Shown here piece by piece: positions 6,809-11,769 of a DNA stretch of 29,457 nt (position 1 is the first letter of the stretch; the number at the start of each line of letters is the position of its first letter). The notes beneath the pieces were generated by a model, which saw only the letters and a list, made by a program, of their open reading frames with translations, searched no databases and was not told the DNA's origin. The position numbers and the translations under genes are program-made. This DNA comes from a virus, in the UHGV virus genome UHGV-1280367. One strand, given 5' to 3'.

Positions 6809-7708
6809 TTACTTCATTCTGAAGACGCGTTGTGTCGTTGTTGTTTTGAATTTTTCGAATAACTCAGGGTGTACTGACTGGAATAGCTTCTGGTCGAATC
6901 TGTTGCTGATCTGAGATTTCCATGTGCAGAGCGGCTTTCCGTCCAGGGTCAGGACTGAGTGCTCTTGCATGTACATCTTCAGCTTCTCTTCTGATATAGC
7001 TATTTCTTCTTCCAGTGATTTTCTGCGTGACTTCATGTCTCGTAGATCGTTGAATAGTGCGAGTGCCTTTCCGTCAGCCTCGATACTTGTACCGGCATCT
7101 TTCTCAAACATCAGTGATACATCGCTTACGCTGGTAGCTTCCGGCGGGTTAAGATTTTTCACTCGGTCCCAGAAAGCGATTTCTTTTTCTAAGATCGCCT
7201 GGATAGTTTCTTCATCACGCTCAACCCGATAGATTCGGAAGTCGTCGCCACCGATAAGCACACCGAAAACGCATACCTGTTTGTTTGTAACCATCAACCC
7301 GTGCATGGCCTGGGCCGTGTAATGCACAGGAATTGCATCTGTCTGGATTTCTCCCCATTCTTTGGCTTTGAACGGACTAACTGTTTTGATCTCAATGTTC
7401 TCGCCTGACGCTGCTTCTGCATCGATCTCAGCTGCAATAAAATCGTAATCACGGTGGATATAGCGGTTTCCGCGATGAACGATTTCCATCCCTGTTTCCT
7501 CAGAAAGCAGGTCTATTACGTATGGCTCCATACGCTGGCCACGCGTGAAAACTTTCTGCTTGCTTGGGTCTACTGGTTTGACACGTGGCTGGACCTTATC
7601 CAGATAAACCTCAAGCGGGGTGCGCCATGGGCTAATTCCAAGAATCCCTGCAACATCGCTTCCTCCGATGTATTTTGTTCTATCCATGATTCCAGCGTTC
7701 CGCATCAT
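6809..7708 (-). CDS. YqaJ-like (lambda-Exo fold) recombination exonuclease
   Basis: 299 aa. N-terminal IGGSDVAGILGISPWRTPLEVY is the YqaJ hallmark. Sits immediately upstream of recT as the expected exo/annealase pair. Confidence 0.7.
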   Translation of the reverse strand: MMRNAGIMDRTKYIGGSDVAGILGISPWRTPLEVYLDKVQPRVKPVDPSKQKVFTRGQRMEPYVIDLLSEETGMEIVHRGNRYIHRDYDFIAAEIDAEAASGENIEIKTVSPFKAKEWGEIQTDAIPVHYTAQAMHGLMVTNKQVCVFGVLIGGDDFRIYRVERDEETIQAILEKEIAFWDRVKNLNPPEATSVSDVSLMFEKDAGTSIEADGKALALFNDLRDMKSRRKSLEEEIAISEEKLKMYMQEHSVLTLDGKPLCTWKSQISNRFDQKLFQSVHPELFEKFKTTTTQRVFRMK

Positions 7709-8312: not shown

Positions 8313-8897
8313 TTATTGTTTGCTTTTTTCGTTCTGGTTGATGACAAATTCAATGTAACTTTCGATCTTTGCTTTCTCGGTTTCGGGTAACAATGCGTAG
8401 CGCGAGCGGTCATAGTTGATGGTCGCAGGGTCGTGCGGGTGAATCAGTAATTCATAGCCGTGACGCCCGAATGCGGATGCCACATTCTCCAGGGTGGAAA
8501 TGGAAACGCTAACCTCATTGTTTAACAGGCGGCTGATTGTCACCTGGGCGACGCCGGATGCGCGGTGAAGTTTTCCCTGTGTTGAAAGGTCGCGGCTTTC
8601 GCTCATCCAGCGTTCCAGGTTGTGAGCCGCCAGCTGACCAATGTCGCTTGGGCCGACAGGCTGAAAACCTTCCTGAGAAAGCGAGCGATCGATATCAAGC
8701 CAGTTACGGGGTTTATTGGCGGCAGCTTCAATTTTTCGCGCAACCTGGTCGCCGATAACCTTCTTGCCAAGAGCCCAGCGGTTTACCAGATTTGCCTGAG
8801 TTCCAAGTTTTTCTGCCATCCGCGTCTGAACACCATTGAATTCACGGTCGATCAAGTCGTTGAGATTTTGCCTGCGGACGTCCTGGATACTTTTCAT
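8313..8897 (-). CDS. Phage repressor (CI-like), two helix-turn-helix regions, no S24 peptidase domain
   Basis: 194 aa. XRE-type HTH pattern near the N-terminus and a second HTH-like segment around residues 110-150. Divergent from the Cro-like gene across an operator-rich intergenic region. Confidence 0.65.
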   Translation of the reverse strand: MKSIQDVRRQNLNDLIDREFNGVQTRMAEKLGTQANLVNRWALGKKVIGDQVARKIEAAANKPRNWLDIDRSLSQEGFQPVGPSDIGQLAAHNLERWMSESRDLSTQGKLHRASGVAQVTISRLLNNEVSVSISTLENVASAFGRHGYELLIHPHDPATINYDRSRYALLPETEKAKIESYIEFVINQNEKSKQ

Positions 8898-8952: not shown

Positions 8953-9015
8953 TTACCCAACAGGTAAATGCACCTCATAGGTAACTATCCTTGATTTTTG
9001 TTACCTTATGGGTGA
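8953..9015. promoter_or_regulatory. Immunity-region operator cluster, three palindromes (8953..8967, 8970..8984, 9001..9015)
   Basis: TTACC-caaca-GGTAA, GCACC-tcata-GGTAA and TTACC-ttatg-GGTGA in the 154-bp repressor/cro intergenic region, arranged like an OR1-OR2-OR3 set. Confidence 0.55.
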
Positions 9016-9051
9016 ATATTTATTATCTGAAATAAATATCAGGCAATAGCT

Positions 9052-9282
9052 ATGAGCGATAACGGACATTTCGATTTCAAAAAGCACTGGCTTGCACTTA
9101 CTCCGGATGAGCGTGAAGCCTTCGCACAGGAAGCCGGAACGACGAGTCACTATATCCAGACTCACTTAACAGGTAAGCGCAAAATGCCAGGTAAAGTATT
9201 GATGAATGGGCTTTTTAAAGCCTGTAAAACAAGACAATGGCTGCGCTCAAAAGCAGAACTGGCATACTTCTTCTACTCATGA
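9052..9282 (+). CDS. Cro-like (YdaS/Cro family) DNA-binding protein
   Basis: 76 aa divergent from the repressor. HTH-like segment LTPDEREAFAQEAGTTSHYIQTHLTGKRKMP. Confidence 0.6.
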   Translation: MSDNGHFDFKKHWLALTPDEREAFAQEAGTTSHYIQTHLTGKRKMPGKVLMNGLFKACKTRQWLRSKAELAYFFYS

Positions 9283-9648: not shown

Positions 9649-10464
9649 ATGAGCAGACATGCAACAGATTGGGCCTGGGAGACAGATCCAGGTAGCTCGT
9701 CATTAAAGCTCATACTGCTCTCGATGGCTGACAGAGCCGATGAATATAACCTCTGCTACCCCAGCATAGAACGCCTCGTTAAAGACACTTGCCTGAATAA
9801 AAAAACCGTGCAGGCCGGGCTTATATCGCTCATGAAAATGGGGCTTATTTCAGATACCGGAGAGAGAAAGGGAGCGACGAAAAGAGTGCGGGTTTTCTCT
9901 CTTAATATAACCAAAAACGGGAACATTAAAGGCAACCGGGAAGGGGGTAATGAACCCGAAAACGGTAATGTTACCGAAAACGGGAATATACCCAAAAACG
10001 GGATGTTGAATGATCCCAAAAACGGGATGTTGAATGATCCCAAAAACGGGATCCAGAACCAGTCATATAACCAGTCATTTAACCAAGAGAGGGAGAGCAG
10101 GACAAAAACCGGGGATTCTGTTCCTCATGACCCCGGCGCAAACAACGCCGTGATGAATAACTTTGTTCCTCCTGGTGGGCCAGGGCAATTAGGCAAATTT
10201 GTCATGCATGAACAATGGCAGCCATCAGATGACTTTCTTCGGAAAAGCTCATTGCAGGGGATCTACCTGGACAGTCTGCCAACGGCACAGGAACTTGCAG
10301 AGTTCAGAATTTACTGGATGGCTGAGGGTAAGGCATACCATCAGGCACAGTGGGAGCAGAAGCTGGCAAGGCGGCTGCAGATTAGCAGACAGAAGCAATC
10401 AACATTACCTGATAACAACGTTCCGCACTGGAACAGCCCTGAAGCGTGGGAGGATTTCTTGTGA
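9649..10464 (+). CDS. Replication initiator (lambda O-like, N-terminal HTH, DnaT-like C-terminus)
   Basis: 271 aa. The N-terminus resembles the phage replisome-organiser N-domain; the gene contains DNA iterons; it is followed by a lambda P-like gene. Confidence 0.7.
   Translation: MSRHATDWAWETDPGSSSLKLILLSMADRADEYNLCYPSIERLVKDTCLNKKTVQAGLISLMKMGLISDTGERKGATKRVRVFSLNITKNGNIKGNREGGNEPENGNVTENGNIPKNGMLNDPKNGMLNDPKNGIQNQSYNQSFNQERESRTKTGDSVPHDPGANNAVMNNFVPPGGPGQLGKFVMHEQWQPSDDFLRKSSLQGIYLDSLPTAQELAEFRIYWMAEGKAYHQAQWEQKLARRLQISRQKQSTLPDNNVPHWNSPEAWEDFL
9911..10049. repeat. Origin-like iteron array: six direct repeats of CC(A/G)AAAACGG
   Basis: Copies start at 9911, 9956, 9974, 9992, 10016 and 10040 (spacings 45, 18, 18, 24, 24 bp). 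They encode the peptide repeats PKNGMLND and lie inside the initiator gene, as in lambda ori. Confidence 0.7.
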
Positions 10465-11246
10465 ACAACGTTTTTACCGCGATACAAAACCGTGACGGAG
10501 AAGCCCTTTCTCGCATGTCAGGTTATGAGCATCAGTACGTCAACAATGACAATGTGGTGAACATGTCAGCAGAGAGGCTTGTTGATGCCCTTTTCAAACA
10601 GCTGAAACAACTGTTTCCGGCGGCAGTGGTAACCAACCTGAAGACGCCAGAGCAGGAAGTTGCTGCAAAACAGCAGTGGATTGCTGCGTTTGCCGAAGGG
10701 GGAATACGTACCCGTGAACAGGTTTCTGCTGGTATGCGCCACGCCCGCGCCAGTGAATCTCCGTTCTGGCCGTCGCCAGGGCAATTCATCAAGTGGTGTA
10801 AAGACAGCAAGATGGTTCTTGGCGTCACCATTGACGATGTGATGGCGGAGTTTCACCGGTACAGCAAGGAAAAAAGTTTATATCCTGGTGGTCCCGAAAG
10901 ATTCCCGTGGCGGCATCCGGTTATGTACTGGGTCGTATGTGATACACGCCGTGCAATGTATCAGCGCCAGCTTAGCGAGATTGAGGTTGAGAAACACGCG
11001 CGCAGGCTGCTCGATGATTGGGCGAAAAAGGTGGCTTCCGGACAGCAGATACCCGATCCGGTGATCAGCATACAGGCAAAGCCAGAACCCATGAGTACAC
11101 CTCCGGACACAGGGAGAGACGTTTACCATCCACCAGGGCGAAGTTTCGGGTGCATGCCTAACGCCGCCACCCTGGGGGGAATAACACCGGCGCAGTGGCT
11201 GATGGAGGAATACAGGCGGGGAAAGGCGGCAGGATTTATCAAGTAA
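10446..11246 (+). CDS. Replication protein P-like helicase loader
   Basis: The block FPAAVVTNLK...QQWIAAFAEGGIRTREQVSAGMRHARASESPFWPSPGQFIKWC parallels lambda P (FPAS...RRQWVLAFRENGITTMEQVNAGMRVARRQNRPFLPSPGQFVAWC) as I recall it. Start could be GTG at 10446 or GTG at 10461 overlapping the O stop. Confidence 0.8.
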   Translation: MGGFLVNNVFTAIQNRDGEALSRMSGYEHQYVNNDNVVNMSAERLVDALFKQLKQLFPAAVVTNLKTPEQEVAAKQQWIAAFAEGGIRTREQVSAGMRHARASESPFWPSPGQFIKWCKDSKMVLGVTIDDVMAEFHRYSKEKSLYPGGPERFPWRHPVMYWVVCDTRRAMYQRQLSEIEVEKHARRLLDDWAKKVASGQQIPDPVISIQAKPEPMSTPPDTGRDVYHPPGRSFGCMPNAATLGGITPAQWLMEEYRRGKAAGFIK

Positions 11247-11708: not shown

Positions 11709-11769
11709 ATCGACGATCTTTTTAGTTATCAATGTAATCAATAAGTTATGTGGATAAGCGAGGGTAAAG

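Follow-up and report, generated by a model that had tools for sequence, protein, structure and literature searches.

A probable lambda-type replication origin inside the initiator gene of a phiV10-like Escherichia coli prophage

The virus genome UHGV-1280367 (29,457 bp; the whole of this stretch is referred to below as the window) is, judged by its sequence, a phiV10-like E. coli prophage; the epsilon15-like phages phiV10, phiv142-3, and PAS61 (Uetakevirus) share 97 to 99% DNA identity with it, and the gene order at its replication initiator gene is that of the phiV10 early-right region. Inside this initiator gene lie six direct repeats, which we interpret as iterons that bind the winged-helix N-terminal domain of the protein encoded by the same gene and thus as the initiator-binding array of the phage origin, a reading to which we assign a probability of roughly 0.8. 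We consider it just as likely that the iterons, together with an adjacent set of phased GAAYC repeats, form the replication origin of this prophage. The arrangement is that of a lambda-type origin inside the initiator gene, and its logic is that of the lambda origin rather than a new kind of biology, as an origin made of dyad-symmetric iterons within the initiator gene is textbook lambda biology.

The motif CCRAAAACGG was found exactly six times in the window, always on the plus strand (starting at 9911, 9956, 9974, 9992, 10016, and 10040), with no match elsewhere in it. The chance expectation was 0.14, and a count of six was reached in none of 100 dinucleotide-preserving shuffles. A first-pass annotation of the window had described six direct repeats of this type at 9911-10049 with a spacing of 18 to 24 bp plus one outlier, which the exact count reproduced: the start-to-start distances of the cores were 45, 18, 18, 24, and 24 bp, and because the first distance is 45 bp, the outlier is most simply the first copy. 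Tandem Repeats Finder reported three arrays, with periods of 18 bp (9946-10001), 24 bp (9991-10052), and 12 bp (10057-10085); the second comprised 2.6 copies with 100% matches, in agreement with the earlier statement that the last two 24-bp units are identical. The full unit is a 16-bp dyad, ATCCC-AAAAAC-GGGAT, from which units 1 to 3 deviate by four mismatches each and unit 4 by two. Two minus-strand terminator-like matches (10042-10023 and 10018-9999) arise merely as a by-product of the 24-bp units.

All six copies fall, in a single reading frame, inside the open reading frame (ORF) at 9649-10464 (+), where they encode (T/P)(K/E)NG and the repeats correspond to aa 88 to 134. That this ORF is an initiator gene, as had been claimed, was well supported by profile searches: the product was matched end to end (aa 1 to 269) by PHROG 1032, "replication initiation protein" (E = 1.2e-108), with Pfam domain HTH_36 (PF13730) at aa 18 to 67 (E = 1.8e-10) and the Pfam DnaT domain (PF17948) at aa 184 to 252 (E = 1e-15). 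An AlphaFold model built on 119 relatives predicted a winged helix for aa 1 to 88, with four helices, a beta-hairpin wing at aa 67 to 85, and predicted local distance difference test (pLDDT) values of 94 to 98, followed by a stretch without secondary structure (aa 90 to 190; pLDDT <50) and a helical C-terminal domain beyond it. Foldseek searches with this model returned generic winged-helix DNA binders only, including the N-terminal domains of plasmid RepA proteins and none with E <1e-3, and thus no specific structural relative could be named from them. Residues 180 to 265 aligned with residues 85 to 170 of E. coli DnaT (PDB 9zbt, 4ou6, and 2ru8; E = 1e-19 to 1e-21), while similarity to full-length DnaT, including its N-terminal domain, was not found, the N-terminal two thirds of the window protein being winged helix and linker. 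HTH_36 was present in all 119 aligned relatives, compared with just 18 carrying the DnaT C-terminal domain and 2 carrying that of lambda O. On these sequence matches, the window protein belongs with the HTH_36-type phage replication initiators (PF13730; PHROG 1032), and the database labels "primosomal protein" and "DnaT" for the phage initiator fit its C-terminal third alone.

The association of this N-terminal domain with the repeats extends far beyond the phiV10-like phages. Homologs with 35 to 50% amino acid identity in Edwardsiella GF-2, Vibrio H20, Acinetobacter AP22, and PPompW prophages carry CCCAAAAACGG-type repeats directly after the winged helix. Moreover, 80 loci from species-representative genomes and four phage loci were combined into a set of 82 distinct loci (GC content, 0.34 to 0.64) spanning Vibrio, Pseudoalteromonas, Acinetobacter, Marinomonas, Providencia, Edwardsiella, Desulfovibrio-type bacteria, and beta- and alphaproteobacteria. 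In the 360 nt following the N-terminal domain at these loci, the strict motif occurred 134 times on the coding strand and once on the opposite strand, and its density after the domain was 4.8/kb versus 0.02/kb in 189 kb of flanks. The core variant follows the clade of the N-terminal domain, being CCAACAAYGG in an Acinetobacter clade and CCGAAAACGG in Vibrio. What lies behind the repeats is far less constant: in GF-2, the N-terminal domain and repeat type of the window are joined to a lambda-O-like C-terminal domain and a P gene, and in AP22, the initiator gene is followed by a DnaB-like helicase gene. With such varied C-terminal domains and partners beside a constant N-terminal domain and repeats, the domain and the repeats move as one module. 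In lambdoid origins, origin specificity resides in the N-terminal part of O, and the swapping of an N-domain/repeat module follows this known pattern. The linker regions of some distant homologs (loci L162, L146, L153, and L167) also contain units in inverted orientation (CCCGTTTTTCC / GTACCGTTTTTCCC), interspersed with the direct copies.

A second repeat follows the array. In the window it takes the form GAACC..TAACC..TAACC with a period of 12 bp (10056-10084). Across 78 loci analyzed, the density of GAAYC was 29/kb within 50 nt past the last unit, compared with 2.4/kb elsewhere in the loci; the first GAAYC was located exactly 6 nt past the last core in 40 of them, it was repeated two or three times at distances of 11 to 13 bp, and more than one reading frame was used in 31. 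Our best guess is that these repeats are a helically phased unwinding or second-site element. It was also considered that GAAYC might be the right half-site of the iteron, which suits some loci (for instance, CGGAACC in L162); this was dropped, the iteron arm in the window being GGGAT. The phiV10 genome has one additional 12-bp copy of the phased repeat.

As a check, the first-pass annotation had suggested looking for an AT-rich unwinding element just downstream. A modest dip in stability was indeed observed in the 40 bp after the last unit (10051-10091; ∼58 to 60% AT; free energy [dG], -50.0 kcal/mol; within the least stable 5.7% of all 40-mers in the window), but it is far weaker than the lambda tract, and the scan of the window for stability and AT content revealed no strongly AT-rich unwinding element downstream of the array. 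Among the homologous loci, the AT content at +30 to +59 after the last unit was 0.62 versus a background of 0.54. No DnaA box was detected in or near the array in a scan of the window, the nearest DnaA-box-like 9-mers being at 7596 and 11749. The latter is the only perfect DnaA box of the window (TTATCCACA, minus strand, 11749-11757) and lies in an AT-rich intergenic stretch (11716-11757) that ranks with the least stable 40-mers found in the window. If up to one mismatch is allowed, the window holds 15 DnaA-box-like 9-mers, compared with 6.7 expected.

These flanks bear on an alternative in which the repeats are initiator sites for control, through autoregulation of the early operon, copy-number handcuffing, or titration, while unwinding and helicase loading take place elsewhere, for example in an AT-rich intergenic region. 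Winged-helix initiators and iterons of plasmids often have regulatory roles, the unwinding element beside the array is weak, and far less stable intergenic stretches occur nearby, including the one with the perfect DnaA box. However, the array accompanies the N-terminal domain through many C-terminal domains and gene neighborhoods, as predicted for a cis-acting origin coupled to its specificity domain; the conserved, helically phased element at exactly 6 nt past the last unit suits an origin core better than an operator; and the lambda precedent puts the origin at this very position. We thus regard a purely regulatory array as unlikely.

Since the six units of the window are all read in the same frame, as (T/P)(K/E)NG, the obvious rival to an origin is a repetitive linker peptide, the repeats then being a slippage-prone (P/T)(K/E)NG linker with no function as DNA. 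The regularity of this peptide, the position of the repeats in a predicted disordered linker, and the variation in copy number among close relatives, as slippage predicts, all suit such an explanation. Exact cores ranged from 4 to 9 per locus across 78 near-identical viral contigs (mode, 6), the layout of the window being the commonest (44/78); the differences among these near-identical relatives consisted of whole 18- or 24-bp units in the linker, and their initiator ORFs measured 792 to 888 nt. In a full-length search, in which almost all proteins were E. coli variants with >90% identity, the related proteins were 279 to 311 aa long among the matches listed. In the record of phage YDC107_2 (CP025713.1; positions 1000-1290 of locus L003), single-base indels in the A-runs of the repeats split the initiator ORF; these are probably sequencing errors, since no such break occurs in the chromosome record of that strain (NZ_CP025707).

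Comparison across homologs nevertheless contradicts the peptide explanation, which the first-pass annotation had named as the finding that would overturn its own reading. The 134 motif copies are read in three frames (96 as PKNG, 27 as QKR, and 11 as PKT), and more than one frame is used in 25 of the 40 loci with exact copies. The same held for 125 cluster representatives obtained independently through an exhaustive HMMER search, of which 119 had unit-derived peptides at aa 81 to 200 and 58 had them in at least two frames. The middle residues differ among distant homologs (KN, KI, EN, IY, and KF), whereas the DNA retains CCC-W6-GGG, including the perfect palindrome CCCAAATTTGGG. The motif is found almost exclusively on the coding strand, and the arms of the dyad covary: the pair (-3,+12) was Watson-Crick complementary in 159 of 289 distinct units versus 96 expected from column composition and the pair (-2,+11) in 181 versus 134, while shifted control pairs equaled expectation. 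Covarying arms include ATCCC..GGGAT, GTCCC..GGGAC, GTACC..GGTAC, CACCC..GGGTG, and CCCCC..GGGGG. In the window, the units also use rare codons, with CCC in 4 of 4 proline codons versus 7% of those in 19 long window ORFs and GGG in 5 of 6 glycine codons versus 17%, a statistic that overstates independence and was taken as supportive only, because the unit copies are partly recent duplicates. Considering the three frames, the strand bias, the dyad covariation, and the rare codons, the region is not purely a peptide linker; these sequence comparisons show that conservation of the repeats acts on the DNA and not on the peptide, and a linker without DNA function is highly improbable.

It is equally improbable that the dyads work by forming hairpins in single-stranded DNA or mRNA, whether for primosome assembly, in keeping with the DnaT-like domain, or for translational pausing. 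The consensus unit can form a 5- to 6-bp stem with an A-rich loop, its arms covary, and DnaT is a component of PriA-type primosomes, whose assembly takes place on hairpins. Against this, folding of 9900-10125 as single-stranded DNA was no better than that of shuffled sequences (z = -0.44; 67 of 200 shuffles folded at least as well), the stems are short, units 1 to 3 are poorly self-complementary (6/16 positions), and the lambda iterons, dyads of the same form, are bound in double-stranded DNA (PMC7466680).

The closest known system is the lambda origin, which we read from its sequence record. Its four annotated iterons (ATCCCTCAAAACGAGGGA, ATCCCCTAAAACGAGGGA, ATCCCTCAAATTGGGGGA, and ATCCCTCAAAACAGGGGG) occupy the central part of gene O, with an A-rich, AT-rich tract behind them. 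Three features of a lambda-type origin were found in the window, namely, dyad repeats of the same orientation within the initiator ORF, their position between the DNA-binding N-terminal domain and the C-terminal domain, and a P-type helicase loader gene directly downstream, in line with the likeness to lambda ori that the first-pass annotation had noted. Similarity extends to the unit itself, with arms ATCCC / GGGA(T), an AAAAC center, and a spacing of ∼18 to 24 bp, and to a purine-rich, less stable stretch downstream. By contrast, lambda has four iterons of 18 to 19 bp, whereas the window has six or seven units of 16 bp (∼3 bp shorter), and the downstream tract of the window is much less AT-rich and bears the phased GAAYC repeats. 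The proteins differ as well: lambda O combines the N-terminal domain Phage_rep_O with the C-terminal domain Phg_2220_C, and the window protein combines HTH_36 with a DnaT-like domain. The description of the initiator as "O-like" therefore stands for its architecture and for distant links through PHROG 678 and 345, which are matched by the N-terminal halves of both proteins and are the sole, weak profile links between them, but not for membership in Pfam Phage_rep_O or for a significant BLASTP match.

Several points weigh against an origin of this kind in the window. The window protein did not match Pfam Phage_rep_O (PF04492) even at E ≤10, whereas lambda O scored 1.6e-36, and a BLASTP comparison of the window protein with lambda O was not significant. 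The downstream tract is weak (dG over 40 bp, -50.0 versus -44.4 kcal/mol for the lambda tract), and 10051-10091 is much more stable than several intergenic regions of the window. The nonindependence of the codon counts given above belongs here too. Finally, a literature search retrieved no paper with this repeat sequence or with a phiV10- or epsilon15-like origin, which is weak evidence, as most subscription journals were outside that search. The literature matches for CCGAAAACGG were papillomavirus E2 sites and primers, and CCCAAAAACGGG was absent from the papers listed; two Acinetobacter iteron papers were rejected as relevant precedent because they concern unrelated plasmid iterons.

Lambdoid relatives offer a precedent for the variable number of units. 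In lambda and Shiga toxin (Stx) phages, the origin occupies the middle of O and consists of iterons and an AT-rich tract, with 4 or 6 iterons, the extra ones adding residues to O; iteron number differs among related phages, and in the six-iteron origins of 933W and P27, the extra iterons lengthen the initiator linker and the distal iterons are weaker sites (PMC7466680). The 4 to 9 copies and the degenerate distal units 1 to 3 observed here are comparable. The Stx phages differ in having a true lambda O and lambda-type 18-bp iterons, with binding and function shown experimentally.

The two-gene architecture of the window is identical to that of DopC/DopE, a domesticated chromosomal lambdoid pair of Cellvibrionales and Oceanospirillales, in which an HTH_36 N-terminal domain and a DnaT C-terminal domain are followed by a P-like protein (PF06992); no iteron-like sequences were found in dopC, and homology of DopC to lambda O in HHpred is confined to the N terminus (Brezellec et al. 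2017, PMC5509034). DopC/DopE are chromosomal and iterons were not found there, whereas the window gene belongs to a phiV10-like prophage and carries a full iteron array. The window gene looks like the phage form from which a DopC/DopE-like pair could derive.

Other known systems are less similar. E. coli DnaT shares the C-terminal domain (aa 180 to 265 of the window protein) but has neither a winged-helix origin-binding domain nor iterons. In iteron plasmids (R6K pi, F RepE, pPS10 RepA, and staphylococcal RepA_N), winged-helix initiators bind direct repeats beside an unwinding region; their iterons are external to the rep gene and are usually accompanied by DnaA boxes and an evident AT-rich region. 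The winged-helix initiator is common to these origins and the window, and the RepA N-domain/DNA complexes 4pql and 5kbj are among the fold matches. The sites in the window, however, lie inside coding sequence with no DnaA box nearby, which does not fit a plasmid-type origin.

For the lambda-type origin proposed here, a mechanism was drawn by analogy with lambda, for which the facts were taken from PMC7466680, and we infer every step of it, including initiator binding, dimer stoichiometry, the unwinding site, and the partners of the C-terminal domain. After induction, the rightward early transcript would supply the initiator and the P-like loader. Dimers of the winged-helix initiator would then occupy the 16-bp dyads, with the consensus units 4 to 6, nearest to the GAAYC zone, being filled first and most strongly, and the array, which contains A-tracts, would be wrapped or bent into an O-some-like complex. 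The less stable GAAYC flank (∼10051-10091) would melt, and the DnaT-like C-terminal domain, on its disordered linker of ∼100 residues, might bind the opened single strand, the P-like loader with its host DnaB, or both, whereupon the helicase would be loaded.

A broader proposal is more doubtful, and we offer it tentatively, with all of its parts taken jointly. The winged-helix domain, the CCC-A5C-GGG iterons, and the phased GAAYC repeats could be an ancient, portable origin cassette that is common to thousands of prophage lineages of alpha-, beta-, and gammaproteobacteria and Desulfovibrio-type bacteria, in which the core of the site has stayed nearly unchanged while the fused C-terminal domain and the helicase-loading partner were swapped repeatedly. 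In such a cassette, GAAYC would be a sequence-specific unwinding or single-stranded-DNA-binding element replacing the AT-rich tract, like DnaA-trios or Rep-bound repeats of unwinding elements, and the domesticated DopC/DopE helicase-loading pair would descend from this phage cassette.

Parts of this picture are already known, namely, the lambda-type intragenic origin, the variation from 4 to 6 iterons in Stx phages (PMC7466680), and the HTH_36 plus DnaT_C/P-like architecture (PMC5509034). The present analysis adds a probable location for the replication origin of phiV10/epsilon15-like (Uetakevirus) prophages, and since phiV10 features, judging by titles, in papers on engineered and reporter phages, knowledge of its origin would help there. 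The initiator gene itself was found in 424 of 5,426 complete E. coli genomes. The analysis also sets right the naming of the initiator as "primosomal protein" and "DnaT" in databases, and it provides a signature for a large family of prophage origins, in which the motif occurs in any frame right after the HTH_36 domain and is followed by GAAYC repeats. The family of the N-terminal domain comprised 3,704 protein clusters at 50% identity. Moreover, the HTH_36 plus DnaT_C/P-like architecture, so far described as an iteron-less chromosomal pair (PMC5509034), also exists as a complete phage module with iterons. The features of the array and its surroundings are listed in Table 1.

TABLE 1 Coordinates of the iteron array, the initiator gene, and neighboring features in the window
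Feature	Position	Strand	Sequence or evidence
Repressor-like HTH gene, immunity region	8313..8897	-	Pfam HTH_3, PHROG 8, phiV10 annotation; divergent from the rightward operon through the origin
Promoter-like site upstream of cro-position gene	8998-9026		Promoter scan
First gene of rightward early operon, cro position	9052..9282	+	PHROG 35, transcription regulation
Replication initiator gene, 271 aa	9649..10464	+	PHROG 1032, Pfam HTH_36 + DnaT domain
N-terminal winged-helix coding region (aa 1-87), presumed iteron-binding domain	9649..9909	+	AlphaFold, Foldseek
Left AT-rich flank, least stable 40-mer of the gene	9891..9931	.	Nearest-neighbor dG -47.5 kcal/mol, top 1.8% of window; GC 0.325
Iteron 1	9908..9923	+	TAACCAAAAACGGGAA; 4 mismatches to 16-mer consensus
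Disordered linker coding region (aa 90-190), contains all repeats	9916..10218	+	AlphaFold
Iteron 2	9953..9968	+	AACCCGAAAACGGTAA
Iteron 3	9971..9986	+	TTACCGAAAACGGGAA
Iteron 4	9989..10004	+	TACCCAAAAACGGGAT
Iteron 5	10013..10028	+	ATCCCAAAAACGGGAT; 5-bp inverted arms ATCCC/GGGAT
Iteron 6	10037..10052	+	ATCCCAAAAACGGGAT, same 16-mer as iteron 5; 5-bp inverted arms
Phased second repeat GAACC..TAACC..TAACC, 12-bp period	10056..10086	+	Candidate unwinding/second-site element
Possible degenerate iteron 7	10102..10117	+	GGACAAAAACCGGGGA; in relatives GGACAAAAAACGGGGA; 2 core mismatches, other reading frame
DnaT-like C-terminal domain coding region (aa 184-252)	10198..10404	+	Pfam PF17948
Lambda-P-like helicase loader gene	10446..11246	+	PF06992, E 1.5e-56; PHROG 109 "P-like helicase loader"; overlaps end of initiator gene

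Two further observations concern the array itself. GATC (Dam) sites at 10012, 10036, and 10050 place three such sites within 42 bp (10012-10053), so that each of the last three units has one inside it or at its border; this is the highest 60-bp count in the window, although other regions may share it. In addition, the variant core (A/C)CCGAAAACGG(T), which occurs at 9956-9983 of the window and in Vibrio H20 (locus L005, 1859-1978), is of the papillomavirus E2 site type ACCG-N4-CGGT, which occurs in viral origins; this match is presumably a coincidence, though the logic is alike, with a dimer on a dyad at an origin.

The initiator gene was also encountered in two unusual records. In strain SF10, it is located on NZ_CP079768.1, a replicon-sized record of 41,027 bp, which suggests a phiV10-like phage genome that was assembled as, or is maintained as, a separate circular molecule. 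In phage BP9 (PP488543.1, a 138-kb Vequintavirus record; locus L002), a repressor-initiator-P module of the phiV10 type, with 97% identity to the window and one 24-bp unit fewer, occupies 134158-137010 at the end of what is otherwise the record of a virulent rV5-like phage, and this record is probably a chimeric assembly. Elsewhere in the window, a 336-bp tandem duplication (1041-1720; 2.0 copies, 99% identity, Tandem Repeats Finder score of 1353) overlaps ORFs at 1557-2213.

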